DNA from: Phycisphaera mikurensis NBRC 102666 | GTDB taxonomy: Bacteria; Planctomycetota; Phycisphaerae; Phycisphaerales; Phycisphaeraceae | Length of the DNA stretch: 32,000 bases | Assembly: GCF_000284115.1 (NCBI RefSeq) | Contig: NC_017080.1 | Coordinates: 3,450,001-3,482,000, forward strand | Reading direction: 5' to 3' | In this document: one piece after another, positions 4,408 to 30,986 of the stretch | Numbering within the stretch: position 1 is the stretch's first letter | How the letters are laid out: each line of letters begins with the position of its first letter | Program-made: the position numbers and the translations under genes | The notes under the pieces: generated by a model | Databases searched by the model: none | What the model saw: only the letters and a program-made list of their open reading frames with translations | Told to the model about the DNA's origin: nothing

Positions 4408-5358
4408 TCAGGCCTTGCCTTCTTCGGTCTCGGCGTCCCGGGGCACGTCCGCGGCGTCGGGCGTCGCGGGGGCGGCGGCCGCACCGACGTCGTCGCCGTC
4501 GGTGGTCTCGGGCTTGTCGCCCGCGGTGTCGGAGCCGCCGGTCACCGCGCCAAGCACCGCGCCGACCGCCCCGCCGGCGACGCTCGCGACCGCGCCCGCG
4601 GCACCGGCGACCGATCCGGCGATGCCGGTGGCCACGTTGCCCTCGCCGTCGGCGGTCTGGGCGTCCTTGTCCGCGTCGGGCTTCGGAGCCGCGGGTCCGC
4701 CGGCGTTGCCGCCACGCCCGCCGCCGGGGCCGCCGCGGCCGCCGCGGCCGCGGGTCTTCTTCGCGTCCTCGTCCTTCTGGTTCGTCGGGCCCTTGGCTTT
4801 CTTCTTGGGGCCGGCGTCGCCCTCCTCGGTCATGTACCGCTTGTTGGCCTCCAGAGCCTCGTCCACGGTCGACTTCTCGATCTCGACGCCGCGGAGCTTC
4901 GCGATCTCCTCGCGGGTGCGCAGCTGGTCGAGCGCGTCCATCACGGCGCGGCACAGGTTGATCTTGTTGGTCGAGCCGTACGCCTTGGTGAGGCAGTCAC
5001 GCACGCCCGCCATCTCCAGGACGGCGCGGACCGTGCCGCCGGCGATGACGCCGGTGCCGGGCGCCGCGGGGATCAGCTTCACCGTGGAGGCGCAGCTGCG
5101 GCCGATGACCTCGTGCGGCACCGTCGCCCCGAGCCGCTTGATGGCGACCATCTCCTTGCGTGCGACCTTCTGCGCCTTCTCGATGCCCACCGGCACGCCG
5201 CGGCCCTTGCCGTAGCCGATGCCGACCTTGCCGTCGCGGTTGCCCACGACGACGAGCGCGGAGAACGACAGCCGGCGGCCGCCTTTGACCGTGGTCGATG
5301 TGCGGTTGATCGCGACCGTGGTGGATTCGAGCTGGTTTCCGTCGAGGGTTTCGGCCAT
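4408..5358 (-). CDS. rpsE: 30S ribosomal protein S5 with ~150-aa low-complexity C-terminal extension
   Basis: The first ~165 aa are canonical S5 (GRRLSFSALVVVGNRDGKVGIGYGKG, GTGVIAGGTVRAVLEMAGV). The frame then continues with high GC3 through a K-rich segment, an RGG segment and a G/A/V-rich segment to the stop at 4408. Confidence 0.88.
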   Translation of the reverse strand: MAETLDGNQLESTTVAINRTSTTVKGGRRLSFSALVVVGNRDGKVGIGYGKGRGVPVGIEKAQKVARKEMVAIKRLGATVPHEVIGRSCASTVKLIPAAPGTGVIAGGTVRAVLEMAGVRDCLTKAYGSTNKINLCRAVMDALDQLRTREEIAKLRGVEIEKSTVDEALEANKRYMTEEGDAGPKKKAKGPTNQKDEDAKKTRGRGGRGGPGGGRGGNAGGPAAPKPDADKDAQTADGEGNVATGIAGSVAGAAGAVASVAGGAVGAVLGAVTGGSDTAGDKPETTDGDDVGAAAAPATPDAADVPRDAETEEGKA

Positions 5359-6535: not shown

Positions 6536-6596
6536 GGCGGTTCTTTCGGTTTCCCGCTTCGCGGGGAGGAGGCCGCGGACGGCCGGGGTTTTGGGG

Positions 6597-6620
6597 AAAA
6601 AACGCCCGCGGTCCGCGGGC
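6597..6620 (-). terminator. intrinsic-terminator-like hairpin plus U-tract between rpsH and rplF
   Basis: Minus-sense GCCCGCGG-A-CCGCGGGC, then G and TTTTTT, beginning 13 nt after the rpsH stop. Confidence 0.4.
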
Positions 6621-7550: not shown

Positions 7551-8162
7551 TCAGGCGGCGCTCCGCTTCTCGTCCTTCTTGACGAAGGGGAAGCCGAGGC
7601 CGGTCATGGCCGACCGGCTCAGCTCGTCGGTGGAGTTGCTCCAAACGAGCGTGACGTTCATGCCGAAGGTGTGCTGGGCGGAGGTCATGTCGACCTCGGG
7701 GAAGATGCCCTGCTCCTGGAGGCCGAAGCTGAAGTTGCCCCGGCCGTCGAAGCTCTTGTCCTTGATGCCGCGGAAGTCCTTGATCCGCGGGATGGCCAGG
7801 CTCACGAGGCGGTCGTAGAACTCCCACATGCGGTCCCCGCGGAGCGTGACGCGAGCGTGCGTCTCGTAGCCCTCGCGGACCTTGAAGTTGGCCACGCTCT
7901 TCTTCGCGGCGACGGCGACGGCCTTCTGACCGGCGATCTTCGCGAGGTCGCTGAGGACCTGCTCCTTGACGGCCGCCTTCACCTTCGTGCCGTCGAGGTG
8001 CTTGCCCATGCCGGAGGTCAGCACGATCTTCTGCAGGCGCGGGAGCGCCTGGCGGTTCCGGGTGCCCGCGGCTTCGGAGAGGCGCGGGAGCACCTCCTCC
8101 TCGAATCGCTGCTTCATCCGCGGGGTCGCGGCGGGGGCCTGGTTGTCGGTGGCGTCGGCCAT
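7551..8162 (-). CDS. rplE: 50S ribosomal protein L5
   Basis: L5 body (NFSFGLQEQGIFPEV, GMNVTLV). The ORF track starts at GTG 8174. ATG 8162 (ACCCACC-ATG context, as in neighbouring genes) is preferred, and ATG 8117 (MKQRFEEEVLPRL) is an alternative. Confidence 0.9.
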   Translation of the reverse strand: MADATDNQAPAATPRMKQRFEEEVLPRLSEAAGTRNRQALPRLQKIVLTSGMGKHLDGTKVKAAVKEQVLSDLAKIAGQKAVAVAAKKSVANFKVREGYETHARVTLRGDRMWEFYDRLVSLAIPRIKDFRGIKDKSFDGRGNFSFGLQEQGIFPEVDMTSAQHTFGMNVTLVWSNSTDELSRSAMTGLGFPFVKKDEKRSAA

Positions 8163-8259
8163 GGTGGGTTGCACTTGGGGCGGGGGATCGGGGGGTGGGG
8201 GCGGGTCGACCGCCGGAGCTTGGAGCGGCGCCGCGGCGGTGCTGCTCCGGGCTGCGGTC

Positions 8260-8610
8260 TCAGTCGCGGCTCTTCTTGAGTTCCGGGCCCAGCACGTCGC
8301 CGGTGGTCGCCGCGACGCGGACCTTCGAGCCGTCGTCGCGGGTCTGGTAGCGGACGCGGGTGGGCTTGCCGTTGGCGTCGACCGGGCTCACGTTGGAGAT
8401 GTGGATGGACACCTCGGTGTTGATCGTGCCGCCCTGCGGGTTGCTCTGCGTGGCGCGGACCCGCTTGGTCCGCAGGTTGACGCCCTCGACCAGCACCCGC
8501 TCGTCGTTGGGGCGGTCGCTCGTGAGGACCTTCAGAACGGTGCCGGTCTGGCCCTTGGAGGAGCCGGAGAGGACCTTGACGGTGTCACCTTTGCGGACGT
8601 GGCGCTTCAT
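8260..8610 (-). CDS. rplX: 50S ribosomal protein L24
   Basis: 116 aa; KGDTVKVLSGSSKGQTGTVLKV KOW motif. Synteny. Confidence 0.92.
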   Translation of the reverse strand: MKRHVRKGDTVKVLSGSSKGQTGTVLKVLTSDRPNDERVLVEGVNLRTKRVRATQSNPQGGTINTEVSIHISNVSPVDANGKPTRVRYQTRDDGSKVRVAATTGDVLGPELKKSRD

Positions 8611-8694
8611 GGGGATTCCGCTTCGCGGGTGGTGGATCAGGAGGGGTTGGGGGGAAGAGCCGCTCGGAGCGGCGGTGTCGCGGGCGGCGAGGAT

Positions 8695-9081
8695 TCAGAC
8701 GACCTCGGAGGCGAGGCTGACGATCTTCATGAACCGCTTCTCCCGGAGTTCGCGGGCCACGGCCCCGAAGATCCGGGTGCCGCGGGGGTTGCCCTCGTCG
8801 GTGATGAGGACGATCGCATTGGAGTCGAACTTCACCAGCGAGCCGTCGTTGCGGCGCACCGGGTAGCGGGTCCGCACCACGACGCCCTTGACGATCGTGC
8901 CCGTCTTCAGGTCGCTGCCCGGCAGCGACTTCTTCACGGAGCAGACGACGGTGTCGCCGACCGTGGCCGTCGGGCGGCTGAACTTGCCGCGTGCCGTGGA
9001 GGCACCGAGCACCCGGATCACGTACGCGATCTTGGCGCCGCTGTTGTCGGCAACATCAACTCGGGATTCCTGCTGGATCAT
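8695..9081 (-). CDS. rplN: 50S ribosomal protein L14
   Basis: 128 aa; [18 protein letters not shown]-terminus and [10 protein letters not shown] motif. Confidence 0.95.
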
Positions 9082-9186
9082 CTCGGTTGGCTCCCGGTGG
9101 AGAGCCCTTTCATTCGGGGTGGGTGCGGCCGGAACCGCGGGAAGGCGAGGCGCGAGCGTTGGCCCGCGGGACGCCGGATCGGCGGC

Positions 9187-9534
9187 TCAGCCGCCGCTGG
9201 TCTCGTCGGCCGGGGCCGTGCCCGCCGCGACGTCGTCGGAGACGAAGGCGTCGACGGCCATCGGGGCGGCCTCGACCACGCGGACCAGGCGGTGGCTCTT
9301 GGTCTTGGACAGCGGGCGGCAGGAGCCGATCTCCACGCGGTCGCCCTCCTTCAGCTCGTTCTTGCCGTCGTGGACCTGGAACTTCTGCGCCTTCTTGATG
9401 TACTTGCCGTACTTGGGGTGCTGCACCTTGAACTCGACGACCACCGTGGCGGTCTTGTCGCGCTTCACCGAGGTGACGACACCGACGCGGGTGCCCAGGA
9501 GCGGGCGGGTGCTGGTGGGGGTGGACTGGCTCAT
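9187..9534 (-). CDS. rpsQ: 30S ribosomal protein S17 (with acidic C-terminal tail)
   Basis: 115 aa; GVVTSVKRDKTATVVVEFKVQHPKYGKYIKK and RPLSKTKSHRLV are S17 motifs. Confidence 0.92.
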   Translation of the reverse strand: MSQSTPTSTRPLLGTRVGVVTSVKRDKTATVVVEFKVQHPKYGKYIKKAQKFQVHDGKNELKEGDRVEIGSCRPLSKTKSHRLVRVVEAAPMAVDAFVSDDVAAGTAPADETSGG

Positions 9535-10263: not shown

Positions 10264-10310
10264 GGCTGTGGCTCGCGGCGTCGCCGCGTGGGGTGGTTCG
10301 GGGAGGCGGG

Positions 10311-10356
10311 CCGCGGACCGCGGCCGGTTTGAGGCTCAAAGAGCCACGGTCCGCGG
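10311..10356. repeat. REP-like palindromic element (CCGCGGACCG ... CGGTCCGCGG) in the rpsC-rplP spacer
   Basis: 10-bp perfect arms with a 26-nt loop that contains the inner hairpin TTTGAG-G-CTCAAA. Shares the 12-mer GCCGCGGACCGC with the elements at 18801 and 25108. Confidence 0.6.
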
Positions 10357-10375
10357 AAGGATCCGCGGGTTCGGA

Positions 10376-18765: not shown

Positions 18766-18800
18766 GGCCGCGAGCGTAGGAGCGGCGGGAGCGGGGTCCC

Positions 18801-18848
18801 GCCGCGGACCGCGGGCGTTTCCGGCCCGAGCGTGCCGCGGTCCGCGGC
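18801..18848. repeat. REP-like palindromic element (GCCGCGGACCGCGG ... CCGCGGTCCGCGGC)
   Basis: 14-bp perfect arms and a 20-nt loop, in the gap between the uvrA start and the upstream membrane-protein stop. The right arm touches that stop codon. Confidence 0.65.
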
Positions 18849-25054: not shown

Positions 25055-25107
25055 GCGGCGAGGCGGCCGCCCCGGGCCGCCGACCCCAGGAGCCGAGGAG
25101 CCGCGAC

Positions 25108-25155
25108 GCCGCGGACCGCCGGCCGGCCGAGCCCCCCCGCCCCGCGGTCCGCGGC
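25108..25155. repeat. REP-like palindromic element (GCCGCGGACCGC ... GCGGTCCGCGGC)
   Basis: 12-bp perfect arms and a 24-nt loop, about 55 nt downstream of the TlpA-like stop. May double as a terminator hairpin, but there is no U-tract. Confidence 0.6.
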
Positions 25156-25256: not shown

Positions 25257-27464
25257 ATGCCCACGCTCCCCCGCCTCCCTCACGCCGTGCTCGCCGGGCT
25301 CCTGCTCTGCCCCGCGGGGGTTGCCGCCGCCGCGGCGGACACCGCTCAGAACGCCAACGACGCGCACGGCGAGACCCGCACCGCCTCCGCGCGGCCTGAC
25401 ACGCCGCTGACCACCGCGTCGGAGACGCTCATCGACTTCTCGCCGGAAGCCGGCTACGACGCGCCGCTCGCCGGCAACGCGATGACCGCCGAGCGGACCG
25501 AGCACCGGGGGCAGACCTGGCTGGAGGTCCGCACCGGCACCGGCAACGACTACCCCGGGATGAGCCTGCCGGCGCCCAACGGCTCCTGGGACCTCCGCGG
25601 CCGCCGGACGGTGGCCCTGGACGTCGTCAACCTCACGGACGAGCCGATGCAGCTGGCGATCGGCGTGAACATGCCCGGCGGCGACCAGGACGCCCAGAAG
25701 CGCATCTGGAACGCCCGCGACTTCGGCCCGCGCGAAGCCGCGACGCTGGAGATCGAGCTGTGCAACACGCCCTGGGTGCTGGACCCGCCGCTGGACCTGG
25801 TGGGCATGCGCTCCGCCCCGGGCCAAAGCCCGATCGACCTCCGCGAGATCGTCAAGGTGGTCCCCTTCCTGCGGACCCCCAAGACCGAGCACCACTTCCT
25901 GTTGGGCAACCTCCGCGCCGAGGGCATCCTCGACGTGCTCGACTCGGCGGACTTCCTGCCCTTCATCGACCGCTACGGCCAATTCAACAAGAGCGAGTGG
26001 CCCGGCAAGATCCACAGCGACGCCGAGCTGGCCGAGCAGCTCGCCGCCGAGCGGGCCGCGCACGCCGCCCGGCCCGAGCGGGCCGACGTCAACCGCTGGG
26101 GCGGCTGGACGGCCGGCCCGCAGCTGGAGGCCACCGGCCACTTCCGCACCGCGAAGCACGGCGGCATGTGGTGGCTGGTCGACCCCGACGGCCGGCTGTT
26201 CTGGTCGCACGGCGTCGACTGCGTGGACCCGCGTTTCGGCGGCACCGGCGTCGAGCACCGCGAGTCCTACTTCGCGTGGCTCCCGCCGGTCGAGGCGGGC
26301 GGGGACGACCCGCTGAGCGAGCACTACGGCGTGGGCGGCTGGGCCCCGCACGGCTTCTACGCCGACAAGGTGCCCTTCCGGATGTACGACTTCTACAACG
26401 CGAACCTGCACCGCAAGTTCGGGGACGACTGGCGGACCGGCTTCGCCGACCTCGCCCACGACCGCATCCACGCCTGGGGCATGAACACCGTCGCCGCCTG
26501 GGGCAGCGCCGCCGTCTACGGCCAGAAGAAGACGCCCTACACCGCCTTCGTCTGGATCAACGAGAGCCCGAAGATCGCCGGCAACAGCGGCTACTGGGGC
26601 CAGATCCACGACGTCTTCGACCCCCGCTTCCGCGCCGCCGTGCGGAAGAGCATCCAGGACGTGGAGACCGACGCCGGCGAATCCACCGATCCCTGGAACA
26701 TCGGCTACTTCGTGGACAACGAGATCCAGTGGGGCTCGCCGACCGGACTCGCCATCGACGTCCTGACCAGCCCGGCCGAGCAGGCTGCGAAGAAGGTTCT
26801 CGTCGAGGACCTCCGGGAGACCCACGGCGAGATCGCCTCGCTCAACGCCGCCTGGGGCACGTCCTACGCCTCTTGGGATGCGCTGCTGCGGAGCACCGCC
26901 GCCCCGCCCGATGCCGAGCGTGCCGCGCCGGACCTCCGCCCCTTCAACCTGAAGATCTACGACACCTACTTCCGGACCGTGAAGGAGGAGCTGCGGAAGA
27001 TCGCCCCGGACAAGCTGTACCTCGGCTGCCGCTTCGCGTGGCAGAACGACGAGGTCGTCCGCGCCTCCGCCCGGTACTGCGACGTGGTGAGCATGAACAA
27101 GTACGAGTTCGACGTGTCGACGCTGCGGCTGCCCGCCGACATCGACCGCCCGCTGATCATCGGCGAGTTCCACTTCGGCGCCAACGACCGCGGCATGTTC
27201 CACGCCGGCCTCAAGAAGGTCGACGACGCGGCCGCCCGCGGCGACGCCTACCGCCACTACGTCGGCGGCGCCGTCCGCAACCCGCAGATCGTCGGCACCG
27301 GCTGGTTCCAGTACATGGACCAGGCCAGCGTCGGCCGCGCCGACGGCGAGAACTACAACGTCGGCCTGGTCACCACCACCGACACGCCCCACGCCGAACT
27401 CGTCGAAGCCATCCGCGACGTCGGCGACGCGATGTACGAGGACCGCCTGGCCGCGGGGCAGTGA
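25257..27464 (+). CDS. secreted clan GH-A (beta/alpha)8 glycoside hydrolase, GH50 (beta-agarase)-like
   Basis: 735 aa; signal peptide, then an N-terminal beta-sandwich-like region. The TIM-barrel part has an Asn-Glu acid/base motif (FVDNEIQWG) and a nucleophile motif (IIGEFHFGANDRG), plus GTGWFQYMDQASVGRADGENYNVGLV. I recall this pattern from proteins annotated as agarase/GH50, so the family assignment is tentative. Confidence 0.6.
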   Translation: MPTLPRLPHAVLAGLLLCPAGVAAAAADTAQNANDAHGETRTASARPDTPLTTASETLIDFSPEAGYDAPLAGNAMTAERTEHRGQTWLEVRTGTGNDYPGMSLPAPNGSWDLRGRRTVALDVVNLTDEPMQLAIGVNMPGGDQDAQKRIWNARDFGPREAATLEIELCNTPWVLDPPLDLVGMRSAPGQSPIDLREIVKVVPFLRTPKTEHHFLLGNLRAEGILDVLDSADFLPFIDRYGQFNKSEWPGKIHSDAELAEQLAAERAAHAARPERADVNRWGGWTAGPQLEATGHFRTAKHGGMWWLVDPDGRLFWSHGVDCVDPRFGGTGVEHRESYFAWLPPVEAGGDDPLSEHYGVGGWAPHGFYADKVPFRMYDFYNANLHRKFGDDWRTGFADLAHDRIHAWGMNTVAAWGSAAVYGQKKTPYTAFVWINESPKIAGNSGYWGQIHDVFDPRFRAAVRKSIQDVETDAGESTDPWNIGYFVDNEIQWGSPTGLAIDVLTSPAEQAAKKVLVEDLRETHGEIASLNAAWGTSYASWDALLRSTAAPPDAERAAPDLRPFNLKIYDTYFRTVKEELRKIAPDKLYLGCRFAWQNDEVVRASARYCDVVSMNKYEFDVSTLRLPADIDRPLIIGEFHFGANDRGMFHAGLKKVDDAAARGDAYRHYVGGAVRNPQIVGTGWFQYMDQASVGRADGENYNVGLVTTTDTPHAELVEAIRDVGDAMYEDRLAAGQ

Positions 27465-27487: not shown

Positions 27488-28670
27488 CTCTGAGCCGCCA
27501 CATCCACGGAGTGGATGAGCCACCCGCCCAGGTGGCTCATCGACTCCGTCGATGTAGAAGCCGAATGCAACCGGAACCGCCCGAAGCCGCGACCGGGCGT
27601 CGTTCCCGCTTCCAGCTCATCCGTCCGTCTGAGCCGCCACATCCACGGAGTGGATGAGCCACCCGCCCAGGTGGCTCATCGACTCCGTCGATGTAGAAGC
27701 CGGATGCAACCGAGACGGCCCGGAGCCGCAACCGGGCGTGGTTCCCCGCTCCCGCTCCTCCGTCCGCCCGAGCCGCCACATCCACGGAGTGGACGAGCCA
27801 CCCGCCCAGGTGGCTCATCGACTCCGTCGATGTAGAAGCGGATTGCAACCGAGACGGCCCGGAGCCGCAACCGGGCGTGGTTCCCCGCTCCCGCTCCTCC
27901 GTCCGTCTGAGCCGTCACATCCACGGAGTGGACGAGCCACCCGCTCAGGTGGCTCATCGACTCCGTCGATGTAGAAGCCGACTGCAACCGAGACGGCCCG
28001 AAGCCGCGACGGGGCCGGCTTCCCACTTCCAGCACATCCGTCTGCCTAAGCCGCCACATCCACGGAGTGGATGAGCCACCCGCTCAGGTGGCTCATCGAC
28101 TCCGTCGATGTAGAAGCCGGATGCAACCGAGACGGCCCGAAGCCGCAACCGGGCGTCGTTCCCCGCTCCCGCTCCTCCGTCTGCCTAAGCCGCCACATCC
28201 ACGGAGTGGATGAGCCACCCGCTCAGGTGGCTCATCGACTCCGTCGATGTAGAAGCCGACTGCAACCGAGACGGCCCGAAGCCGCGACCGGGCGTCGTTC
28301 CCCGCTCCCGCTCCTCCGTCCGCCCGAGCCGCCACATCCACGGAGTGGATGAGCCACCCGCTCAGGTGGCTCATCGACTCCGTCGATGTAGAAGCCGACT
28401 GCAACCGAGACGGCCCGAAGCCGCAATCGGGCGTGGTTCCCCGCTCCCGCTCATCCGTCTGCCTCAGCCGCCACATCCACGGAGTGGATGAGCCACCCGC
28501 TCAGGTGGCTCATCGACTCCGTCGATGTAGAAGCCGACTGCAACCGAGACGGCCCGAAGCCGCAACCGGGCGGGCTTCCCGCTTCCCGCTCATCCGCGCC
28601 CCTACGCCGCCACATCCACGGAGTGGATGAGCCACCCGACCGCAGGTGGCTCATCGACTCTGCCGATTGG
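27488..28670. repeat. tandem array of 139-bp units (8 full + 1 degenerate), each with a 54-nt near-perfect hairpin
   Basis: Unit starts are 27492, 27631, 27770, 27909, 28048, 28187, 28326, 28465 and 28604. The (A[T/C]G)AGCCACC landmark recurs at 27515 + n*139 for n = 0-8. The consensus hairpin is CATCCACGGAGTGGATGAGCCACC / CGCYCA / GGTGGCTCATCGACTCCGTCGATG, for example 27501-27554. Confidence 0.95.
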
Positions 28671-28784
28671 GAGGCTCGACGAATCCCGAGGCGGCCGGCA
28701 GCCGCTCCATCCGCGGGATCTCCTCCCGCTTGGTTGGGGCGTCCTTCGTCGTCTCCATCGCGCCACCCGGACGAGCGACCCGAC

Positions 28785-30986
28785 TCACCGCAGGAACGCG
28801 TCCGCCAGCCCGCCGTCCACGTGGATGATTTGGCCGGTCGTCCGGCTGCTCGCGTCGCTCAAGAGGAACCACGCGGCCTCGGCTTGGTCCTCGGGCCGGA
28901 TCGGGTTGTGCGTGAGCGTCCGCTCGGCGTAGAACTGCGCGAGCCGGTTGCGCAGGTCCTCGGTCTTGCCGTTCTCGGCATCGTGCTCGATGCCGTACTT
29001 GGCGAGGCTCGCGAGCACGCGCTGGCGCGGAAACATCGTCGAGCCGGCGACGACGGTCGCGGGAGCGATCGCGTTCACGCGGACCGTCGGGCTCATCTCC
29101 ACGGCCAGCTCGCGAACGAGGTGATCCGCCGCGGCCTTCGAGCAGTCGTAGGCGACGCTGCCCTTCTTCGCGACCACGGCGTTGACGCTTGTCGTGAGCA
29201 CGACCGAGCCCTCGAGGCCTTGGGCGTCGAAGACGGGCTTCATCTCCCAGACGGCGTTGTACGAGCCGCGTACGTTGACGTCGAAGGTGAGCTGCCACTG
29301 CTGCGGCGTCACCTGCCCGGTCGCCGGGTCCTGCGGGACGAAGACGCCGGCGGTGACGACGAGGTGGTCGATGCCGCCGTAGGCGAGCACCGCGTGCTTG
29401 ATCAGGCCGGCGAGCGACACCGTGTCGGTGATGTTCGCGGCGGCCGCGGTCGCTGGACCGCATCCCGAGACGCCCGTCCCCGCGACGCCGATGCCCTGGC
29501 CGTACGCGGCCGTCAGATCGTCGGCGGTTTCCTGGGCGGCCTCGAGCTTCATGTCGGCGGAGACGATGTGCCCGCCCTGGGCGGCCAGCTTCTCGGCCAC
29601 GGCCCTGCCGATGCCCGAGCCGGCGCCGACGACGACGACCACGCGGCGGGCCAGCGGCTTCTCGGCGGGCATCCGCTGGAGCTTCGCCTCCTCGAGCGCC
29701 CAGTATTCGATGTCGAAGGCCTCCTGCTGGGGCAGCCCGACGTACGCGTCGATCGCCTCGGCCCCCCGCATCACCTCGACGGCGCAGCAGTAGAACTCGG
29801 CGGTGACGCGGCTCTCGCTCTTGTTCTTGCCCCACGCGATCAAGCCCAGGCCGGGGATGAGCACGACCGTGGGGTTCGGATCCCGCATCGCGGGCGAGTC
29901 GGGCTTCTTGCAGGCTTCGTAGTAGCTCCGGTAGTCGGCGCGATACCTCTCGAGGCCCTCGTCGAGCCGCTGCTTGAGCACGTCAACGTCGCCGGACGCC
30001 GGATCCCAGTCGACGTAGAGCGGCTTGATCTTCGTCCGCAGGAAGTGGTCCGGGCAGGAGGTGCCCAGCTCGGCGAGGCGGGCGGCGTCGTGCGAGTTGA
30101 CGAACTGCAGCACGCTCTCGCGATCGTCGACCGTGCCGATGAAGCGCTGCTGCTGCGAGACGCGGCCGCGGAGCCAGGGAAGGACTTGCACGAGCAGTGC
30201 CTCACGCTCGTCGAGTCCCGGGGTGCGGTACTTCGCACCGCCGAAGGTCTGCTCGTGCTTGTCGTGGTCGGCGATGTAGCGAGCGGCGGTGTCGATCAGG
30301 TCCAGCGAGAGGTCGTAGCAGGCTCTCGCGTCGTCGTGCCAGTTGATGAGCCCGTGAGCCGCCATCAGCAGGCCTTCCAGCCGCGGGTTCTTCTTCTGCT
30401 CCTCGTGCATGAGCAGGCCCAGCTCGAAGCCGGGCCGCATCCACGGCACCCAGCCCAGCCGCCCGCCCCAGATTGTCTGCGTCAGCTCCTGGTTGTTCTT
30501 CGAGGCCGCCACCGCGATCACCGCGTTGGGGTGCATGTGGTCGACGTGCCGGGCGGGCAGAAAGGCGTGCAGCGGCGTGTCGATGCTCGACGCCCGCGGA
30601 TTCAAGTCGAAGGTGCAGTGCCTGTAGTTGGCGACCTGCTCGTCCTCGGCCGGCGTCTTGAGGCCGGTGTCCGAGCGGGCTTCGTAGGACGCCTTCAGCT
30701 GCTCCAGGCTCGCCATCGAGAGCGAGGCGAAGTTCTCTCTCTTCGACGTCCGCAGGTCGCCGCCTGAGCCCTTCACCCAGAGCACGTCGACCTCTTCGCC
30801 GGTGAGCGGGTCCTTCTGCTTGACCTTCGAGGAGGTGTTGCCGCCGCCGGTGTTGGTGATCCGCTGGTCGGCGCCGAGGATGTTGGAGCGGTAGACGAGG
30901 GCGTCGACCGGATCGGAAGGCGCCTCGGCGTCGTTCCAGAGGTACGCGACGTGGGGGCTGTTCTTCAGTGCGGCGGGATCGGGCAT
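28785..30986 (-). CDS. bifunctional rhamnulose-1-phosphate aldolase / short-chain dehydrogenase
   Basis: 733 aa; N-terminal class II aldolase/adducin-like region (NTGGGNTSSK, WVKGSGGDL, HVDHMHPNAVIA). C-terminal SDR domain (VVVVGAGSGIGRA, YDCSKAA). This architecture matches the RhaEW/YuxG-type enzymes of L-rhamnose catabolism. Confidence 0.88.
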   Translation of the reverse strand: MPDPAALKNSPHVAYLWNDAEAPSDPVDALVYRSNILGADQRITNTGGGNTSSKVKQKDPLTGEEVDVLWVKGSGGDLRTSKRENFASLSMASLEQLKASYEARSDTGLKTPAEDEQVANYRHCTFDLNPRASSIDTPLHAFLPARHVDHMHPNAVIAVAASKNNQELTQTIWGGRLGWVPWMRPGFELGLLMHEEQKKNPRLEGLLMAAHGLINWHDDARACYDLSLDLIDTAARYIADHDKHEQTFGGAKYRTPGLDEREALLVQVLPWLRGRVSQQQRFIGTVDDRESVLQFVNSHDAARLAELGTSCPDHFLRTKIKPLYVDWDPASGDVDVLKQRLDEGLERYRADYRSYYEACKKPDSPAMRDPNPTVVLIPGLGLIAWGKNKSESRVTAEFYCCAVEVMRGAEAIDAYVGLPQQEAFDIEYWALEEAKLQRMPAEKPLARRVVVVVGAGSGIGRAVAEKLAAQGGHIVSADMKLEAAQETADDLTAAYGQGIGVAGTGVSGCGPATAAAANITDTVSLAGLIKHAVLAYGGIDHLVVTAGVFVPQDPATGQVTPQQWQLTFDVNVRGSYNAVWEMKPVFDAQGLEGSVVLTTSVNAVVAKKGSVAYDCSKAAADHLVRELAVEMSPTVRVNAIAPATVVAGSTMFPRQRVLASLAKYGIEHDAENGKTEDLRNRLAQFYAERTLTHNPIRPEDQAEAAWFLLSDASSRTTGQIIHVDGGLADAFLR

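Follow-up and report, generated by a model that had tools for sequence, protein, structure and literature searches.

A 139-bp tandem array of paired inverted palindromes in Phycisphaera mikurensis, a candidate species-restricted repeat cluster built like REPIN and BIME clusters

The canonical repetitive extragenic palindromic (REP) element is defined by the tetranucleotide GT[AG]G located 5′ to the foot of its hairpin (PMC6006769). Doublets of REPs (REPINs, REP doublets forming hairpins) have been described in tandem together with their flanking DNA, in clusters exceeding 700 bp and with periods of about 184 bp, and large REP clusters at few loci are also on record (PMC3116915, PMC3733652), some families being confined to a few large blocks as in the case of GTAG-23 of Thermomicrobium roseum (PMC3733652). 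In addition, the class 3 hairpins associated with TnpA(Y1), which are thought to be substrates of HUH-Y1 enzymes, have a 5′ CnGA foot immediately adjoining the hairpin and are situated on the flanks of the transposase gene (PMC6006769). Here we describe a tandem array of nine hairpin-bearing units with a period of 139 nt, carried on the 3,803,225-bp chromosome of Phycisphaera mikurensis NBRC 102666 within a stretch of 32,000 nt (NC_017080.1, positions 3,450,001 to 3,482,000; hereafter the window, to which all positions refer). We propose with moderate confidence that the array is a species-restricted extragenic palindromic repeat cluster, built like the clusters of REPINs or of bacterial interspersed mosaic elements (BIMEs). 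On this reading it belongs, as a variant particular to its lineage, to a familiar class of bacterial palindromic repeat clusters and does not represent a novel type of system.

Analysis by Tandem Repeats Finder placed the nine-unit array at 27490-28667, with a 139-nt period, 8.5 copies, 92% matches, 0% indels and a score of 1877 (for coordinates of all features see Table 1). A repeat search of the window gave nine copies in register, each 139 nt apart, and the 23-nt arm motif ATCSACGGAGTSGATGAGCCACC, with up to 3 mismatches allowed, was found 18 times in the 32-kb window, nine times on each strand and always within the array, against an expectation of 0.00 from shuffled sequences. The decamer ATGAGCCACC or ACGAGCCACC thereby falls at precisely the positions reported in an initial annotation of this DNA. 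The array fills the sole convergent junction of the window, a gap of 1320 nt (1.32 kb, as originally stated) between the stop of a plus-strand gene at 27464 and that of a minus-strand gene at 28785. The proteins encoded by these two genes match those of P. mikurensis NBRC 102666 exactly. It consists of eight well-kept 139-nt units (27490-28601) and a degenerate ninth, and the layout of the nine units is left arm, 6-nt spacer, right arm and a linker of 83-85 nt, with the arms alternating in orientation. The linker is thus longer than the C-rich tail of about 70 nt that had been described, and its sub-repeat, previously given as GAAGCCG(nnn)GCAACCG ... GAAGCCGCAACCG, is indeed present (GAAGCCG(nnn)GCAACCG...GAAGCCGCRACCG). 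Units 1, 4 and 8 are among the most divergent. Beyond the degenerate ninth hairpin, a decayed copy of the linker can still be recognized as far as about 28735, its local alignment score of 43 standing against 25.7 +/- 4.5 in 500 shuffles, 3 of which reach 43. At 28770-28782, just before the stop of the right-hand gene, the sequence GACGAGCGACCCG resembles the start of the inner arm GATGAGCCACCCG in the register of a fully decayed tenth unit, a resemblance that may be due to chance.

The array is non-coding, since its G+C content at third codon positions is 0.67-0.69 in all six frames as compared with 0.97 and 0.94 in the flanking genes, in agreement with the earlier statement that it is not a protein repeat. 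Exact look-up of ten open reading frames (ORFs) inside the array gave no match in the protein collection.

Each hairpin is 54-56 nt in length, with 22 of 24 Watson-Crick pairs and identical C/C and G/G mismatches in each full unit. The claim that every copy shares this structure holds for the full units in general, but copies 3 and 4 carry one extra mismatch, and the ninth has an 8-nt loop and a decayed right arm. The palindromic nature of each arm was overlooked in the earlier reading. The left arm CATCCACGGAGTGGATGAGCCACC and the reverse complement of the right arm, CATCGACGGAGTCGATGAGCCACC, are two copies of one basic 24-nt REP-like element, CATCSACGGAGTSGATGAGCCACC (arm CATCSACGGAGTSGAYGAGCCACC), made up of a 7-bp stem, a GGA loop and a 7-nt tail. 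The stem reads CATCSAC/GTSGATG, closed by the 3-nt loop GGA, and its variable pair reads C-G or G-C depending on the arm. Between the two arm copies the only differences are at positions 5 and 13, which pair with each other in the stem of each arm, and therefore the two apparent mismatches of the long hairpin represent a compensated base pair that preserves the hairpin of each arm. The chance of two differences falling as such a compensated pair is, by our own calculation, about 7/276 x 1/3 = 0.009. The unit thus consists of two small palindromes in inverted orientation that can fold separately or as one long hairpin, which is the arrangement that defines a REPIN. For both strands, folded either as RNA or as DNA, the long hairpin has the lowest energy (RNA, -42.9 kcal/mol for the plus strand and -48.0 for the minus strand; DNA, -24.4), with the three-hairpin alternative at -29 kcal/mol.

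The locus compares well with described clusters on several points. The 24-nt arm falls within the dimensions of a REP palindrome (stem of 5-13 bp, loop of 2-20 nt, 20-40 bp overall); two such elements are inverted across a short spacer into one long hairpin, as in a REPIN; and the REP-like elements alternate, with conserved linkers and tandem reiteration, as in BIMEs and tandem REP clusters, for which binding of IHF, DNA gyrase or Pol I is a further criterion. The REPIN clusters and GI-GIII REP arrays of Pseudomonas fluorescens SBW25 (Bertels & Rainey 2011, PMC3116915) likewise consist of an inverted palindrome pair forming a long hairpin and repeated in tandem with adjoining sequence, and both they and the P. 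mikurensis arrays have periods of 140-185 bp, occur as several arrays per genome and are extragenic. In SBW25, however, hundreds of REPINs are dispersed and have cognate RAYT (REP-associated tyrosine transposase) genes, and only a minority stand in clusters, none with more than 4 REPINs, whereas the cluster described here has 9 units and the family is seen as arrays only; unlike in SBW25, the linker is common to the loci at fixed length and the 5′ GT[AG]G foot is lacking. BIME-2 of E. coli and the large REP clusters of other phyla (Di Nocera et al. 2013, PMC3733652) share with the array alternating REPs, conserved linkers and tandem organization, as well as a location downstream of genes and between convergent ORFs, for which roles in termination and mRNA stabilization have been proposed. 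From these the array differs in sequence family, in host class (Phycisphaerae), in tag polarity and in its far longer linker of 83-85 nt. The class 3 atypical hairpins of Planctomycetes and Acidobacteria (Quentin et al. 2018, PMC6006769) come from the same phylum and are also repeated, non-canonical hairpins without GTAG foot, but in P. mikurensis the sequence CTGA/CCGA is found 6-7 nt upstream of the hairpin in just 5 of 8 units, and no such transposase gene is known nearby; the species itself is absent from that paper and its supplements. The dismissal of REP and BIME analogues in the initial annotation, on the basis of unit size and hairpin length, cannot be maintained, because tandem REPIN doublets with flanking DNA and REP clusters at few loci have been described (PMC3116915, PMC3733652).

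The arms are conserved to a much higher degree than the linkers. Across the eight full units, variation is seen in 2 of 56 columns of the hairpin as compared with 28 of 83 in the linker (Fisher p = 1.3e-5). The same comparison could be made between loci, using two sister arrays that were found through annotated proteins. In order to catch arrays that had been called as genes, we translated the consensus unit in all six frames and searched protein databases with the result. A single protein was retrieved, PSMK_01230 of P. mikurensis, and lengthening the query, at E<=10, brought no further match. The C-terminal 147 residues of this protein correspond to 3.2 units in register with a period of 139, and nothing in the window matches its N-terminal 115 residues, therefore indicating a second locus with unrelated flanks. 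An exhaustive phmmer search with PSMK_01230 over 1.84 billion protein representatives gave one further match, PSMK_04550, which represents a third locus, and none outside P. mikurensis. In PSMK_04550 the repeat recurs in frame every 47 residues, i.e. with a 141-nt period, owing to 2 extra nucleotides in the loop (8 nt, like that of the ninth hairpin of the window), while the tail has the same length as in the window; as 141 is divisible by 3, an open frame passes through the units. Both GenBank/UniProt 'hypothetical proteins' are translations of sister arrays and hence almost certainly spurious gene calls. Relative to the window consensus, PSMK_01230 differs at 4 of 62 hairpin codons and 19 of 81 tail codons (p = 0.006), and PSMK_04550 at 0 of 32 and 25 of 54, respectively. 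Since the bias between hairpin and linker is the same between loci as within the array, either selection on the arm sequence or some arm-specific homogenizing process is indicated, the linker drifting in sequence with its length kept.

The element is uncatalogued and apparently restricted to this species. Arm copies were found in P. mikurensis at no fewer than three loci, all of them arrays, and the roughly 42 kb surrounding the array of the window contain no single copy. When the exact hairpin pattern was sought in 185,579 GTDB species-representative genomes, in JGI metagenomes and in viral contigs, the matches were all unrelated, single terminator-like hairpins; they have the inner GAGCCACC/GGTGGCTC palindrome in common with the array but, by inspection and blastn, no similarity beyond it. 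The pattern demanded GATGAGCC, and PSMK_01230 units may read GACGAGCC; the GTDB scan is informative for other species only, since the source genome, which must be masked or absent there, was not among its matches (the window itself holds seven exact matches to the pattern). No blastn match was obtained among PLSDB plasmids. Rfam 15 gave 0 matches in the window at gathering score and, at E<=10, only sub-threshold noise of miRNA type and Actino-ugpB. No relative outside P. mikurensis was detected in the genomes, metagenomes, viral contigs, plasmids and protein representatives scanned. Literature searches on Phycisphaera repeats, on RAYTs and on the locus tags gave no description of the element.

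An independent assembly of the same strain, GCA_014207395.1 (JGI), also contains the array, shorter by 278 nt or exactly two units (6.5 copies versus 8.5). Its flanks agree with no mismatch over 8144 + 3160 nt (11.3 kb), the array occupying the stretch 8144-9266 of the segment compared; the missing 278 nt correspond to units 5-6 (about 28049-28326), and a single nucleotide polymorphism, T/C at 28427, distinguishes the two assemblies. Contigs assembled from short reads (Logan) stop at the outermost hairpins, the first and the last. The difference in copy number reflects either short-read collapse or genuine instability, and the array itself exists. The two-unit difference and the assembly breaks are the behavior expected of a recombining tandem cluster.

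Two REP-like elements, inverted around a 6-nt (sometimes 8-nt) spacer, can together form one long hairpin, and this doublet plus the linker of 83-85 nt makes up the 139-nt unit. If the array is indeed a palindromic repeat cluster, the unit would have multiplied head-to-tail, with unequal recombination or replication slippage as the simplest route. Inner units would then be homogenized and edge units would decay, and both the edge decay and the two-unit assembly difference fit growth and homogenization by unequal recombination. The unit, or blocks of units, would have moved to other chromosomal sites, because the sister arrays have unrelated flanks. The arms would be kept because a protein recognizes their small hairpins on one strand, in single-stranded DNA, in the manner in which HUH/Y1 transposases of the RAYT type recognize REPs. 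At the locus in the window, both convergent transcripts would meet very stable hairpins (-43 to -48 kcal/mol), where read-through could be stalled or terminated and the 3′ ends shielded from exonucleases, and a transcription barrier or RNA-stabilizing hairpin is the likely local role. The terminator or insulator function suggested earlier is plausible as a local by-product, although no canonical intrinsic terminator is present.

Several observations weigh against this interpretation. The canonical 5′ GT[AG]G guide tetranucleotide is found at no hairpin on either strand; the feet read 5′-C[CT]AC ... GT[AG]G-3′ on both strands, that is, with opposite polarity, and GTAG/GTGG occurs only 3′ of the hairpins. 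No Y1/HUH transposase was detected among the window ORFs scanned, nor is one on record for the genes up to 10 kb to the right. The three known loci are all arrays, without any single copy in those 42 kb, when classic REPs number tens to thousands. At each of the three loci the unit includes the linker, with its length conserved, which would not be predicted of flanking DNA simply carried along. No U-tract follows the hairpins, hence they are not canonical intrinsic terminators. Because the defining 5′ GT[AG]G foot is missing, we do not file the array as a canonical RAYT-associated REP, even though it would work like a REPIN/BIME cluster.

Some of the same observations would be accommodated by a plain satellite, in which a terminator-like hairpin and adjacent DNA were amplified by slippage or unequal crossing-over and copied by recombination, with neither a dedicated transposase nor a function, and in which arm conservation would stem from homogenization or hairpin-templated repair. 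The occurrence as arrays only, at three loci, the decay at the edges together with unstable copy number, and the lack of both a nearby transposase (among the ORFs scanned) and the canonical REP foot are all consistent with such an origin. Homogenization of whole units, however, leaves unexplained why the arms are near-invariant when, from one locus to another, as many as about 45% of the linker codons are different, and it does not account for the compensated C-G/G-C pair that preserves the arm hairpins; furthermore, the unrelated flanks of the sister arrays still demand a mechanism of transfer. We consider the satellite explanation doubtful.

A multi-copy structured RNA, one of the functions suggested in the initial annotation, for which the array would be transcribed, probably from the minus strand, and cut at or between the hairpins into RNAs of about 139 nt with a function of their own, is quite unlikely in our estimate. 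Whole units fold far better than dinucleotide shuffles (z-scores of about -5.4 to -6.4), and the minus strand is the more stable (-83.4 versus -64.6 kcal/mol for the plus strand). Transition-type mismatches (the GGACGAG variant and three at the base of the stem) form G.U or G.T on the minus strand and C.A on the plus strand in 4 of 4 cases, weakly suggesting the minus strand as the folded strand, as the bias amounts to about p = 0.12 (two-sided, our own calculation). One-sided changes in the tail helix predicted for the minus strand preserve pairing, but compensatory change is lacking in this helix and shuffles equal the observed data. The arms are conserved in sequence and do not covary; the array has no Rfam family at gathering score, 0 promoter-like and 0 terminator-like sites were detected in consensus scans, and no homologue was found in other organisms.

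We assign a similarly low probability to the wider view that the arrays are a functional element specific to Phycisphaera, neither selfish nor neutral, with the invariant triple palindrome as active part, serving as a protein-loading platform (for segregation, nucleoid organization or factor titration) or as a minus-strand precursor of RNAs of about 139 nt. Such a host function would be the cause of both the linker length fixed at three diverged loci and the conservation of the arms.

Still less probable is an array of sites for protein binding to double-stranded DNA (centromere-like, nucleoid-organizing or factor-titrating), in which each unit would offer three adjacent palindromes to dimeric binders. 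The three palindromes per unit are invariant in sequence, the unit length is free of indels within and between loci except for the loop, and accession and locus-tag numbering puts the three loci at roughly 4%, 14% and 91% along the chromosome; the apparent clustering, however, rests on n=3 and its detection is biased by ORF calls. The only DNA-binding gene near the array encodes a DeoR sugar regulator, no partition gene is adjacent, the unit contains no parS-like motif, and 139 and 141 bp are not whole helical turns (139/10.5 is non-integer). In addition, a duplex site would not need the compensated pair within the arms. An assembly artefact, a concern raised at the outset, is practically negligible: the assemblies disagree in copy number, and those made from short reads are interrupted at the array, but two independent assemblies share the array, its flanks and its unit order, and sister arrays exist elsewhere in the genome, so that the copy number alone is in doubt.

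Other known repeat systems were considered and rejected. CRISPR arrays also consist of regularly spaced palindromic repeats, but here the segments between the hairpins share homology, with 55 of 83 columns invariant, the repeat measures 54-56 nt compared with 24-48 bp, and no cas gene was found among the window ORFs scanned, as had been concluded from the start. For integron attC sites, as in clusters lacking an integrase (CALIN), the core sites R'' RYYYAAC and R' GTTRRRY occur on neither strand of the consensus unit. The sopC of the F plasmid and iteron-type centromeres likewise have tandem units each with an inverted repeat, yet the sopC units are 43 bp and lie beside sopAB, in contrast to 139-bp units with intra-arm hairpins, at several chromosomal loci and without adjacent partition genes; a centromere-like sopC/parS element was rejected as the scanned ORFs of the window encode no ParA/ParB domain and the unit has no parS-like motif. 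A tRNA origin was rejected after no tRNA or tmRNA was found. The resemblance of ATCCAC/GTGGAT to the DnaA box, TTATCCACA, extends to 6-7 of 9 positions and was dropped as too weak.

Table 1. Positions of the array, its units and other features in the window.
Feature	Position	Strand	Remarks
Left flanking gene, BAM05087.1	25257..27464	+	735 aa; without Pfam domain; UniRef name beta-agarase; stop 25 nt ahead of array
Tandem array	27490..28667	none	Tandem Repeats Finder, in-register copies and unit listing
Unit 1 hairpin	27500..27555		ACATCCACGGAGTGGATGAGCCACC-CGCCCA-GGTGGCTCATCGACTCCGTCGATGT; two inverted 24-nt REP-like arms, each a palindrome of 7 bp with 3-nt loop
Linker (example)	27556..27638		83 nt; C-rich on + strand; recurring in all units
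Unit 2 hairpin	27639..27694
Unit 3 hairpin	27778..27833		GGACGAG variant; C.A mismatch on + strand, G.U/G.T wobble on - strand
Unit 4 hairpin	27917..27972		GGACGAG variant
Unit 5 hairpin	28056..28111
Unit 6 hairpin	28195..28250
Unit 7 hairpin	28334..28389
Unit 8 hairpin	28473..28528
Ninth hairpin	28612..28669		Decayed; 8-nt loop CGACCGCA; right arm with 2 mismatches to arm motif and an extra T
Degenerate linker copy	28668..28735		Past ninth hairpin; decayed array edge, with indels
Right flanking gene, BAM05091.1	28785..30986	-	733 aa; Aldolase_II and adh_short; bifunctional rhamnulose-1-phosphate aldolase/short-chain dehydrogenase
Second palindromic family	6571-6619, 10309-10357, 18800-18848, 25107-25155		4 intergenic copies

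Elsewhere the window carries the S10/spc ribosomal protein operons, secY, map, uvrA, fmt and small metabolic genes. Genes for transposase, integrase, reverse transcriptase, Cas proteins or partition are absent among the window ORFs scanned, as previously noted (cas, transposase, integrase, reverse transcriptase and ParB), and none is on record for the genes up to 10 kb to the right of the window. A second palindromic family was noted in the window, consisting of paired 13-mers, CCGCGGACCGCGG ... CCGCGGTCCGCGG, each of which is palindromic, with the arms about 19-21 nt apart; its 4 copies in 32 kb suggest a dispersed REP-like family in the P. mikurensis genome. The ORF for ribosomal protein S5 (4408-5358, minus strand) encodes 316 aa, of which the Pfam domains stop at residue 156; its C-terminal half overlaps GCC-rich short tandem repeats (4697-4753) and represents either a low-complexity extension or an over-long ORF call.

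The current understanding of bacterial repeats is unchanged by this array. In practical terms, arrays of this kind break or collapse short-read assemblies, as in the 8.5 and 6.5 copies of the same strain, and have yielded the spurious database proteins PSMK_01230 and PSMK_04550; the array could also serve as a marker for strain typing of the variable number tandem repeat (VNTR) type. If our interpretation is true, clusters of the REPIN/BIME type would extend to the class Phycisphaerae, with a family that departs from the canonical ones in having no 5′ GTAG foot, in being known so far as arrays only and in including a linker of fixed length in its unit. It would then offer a small and manageable system in which to ask how REP-like hairpins are maintained in the absence of a known RAYT.

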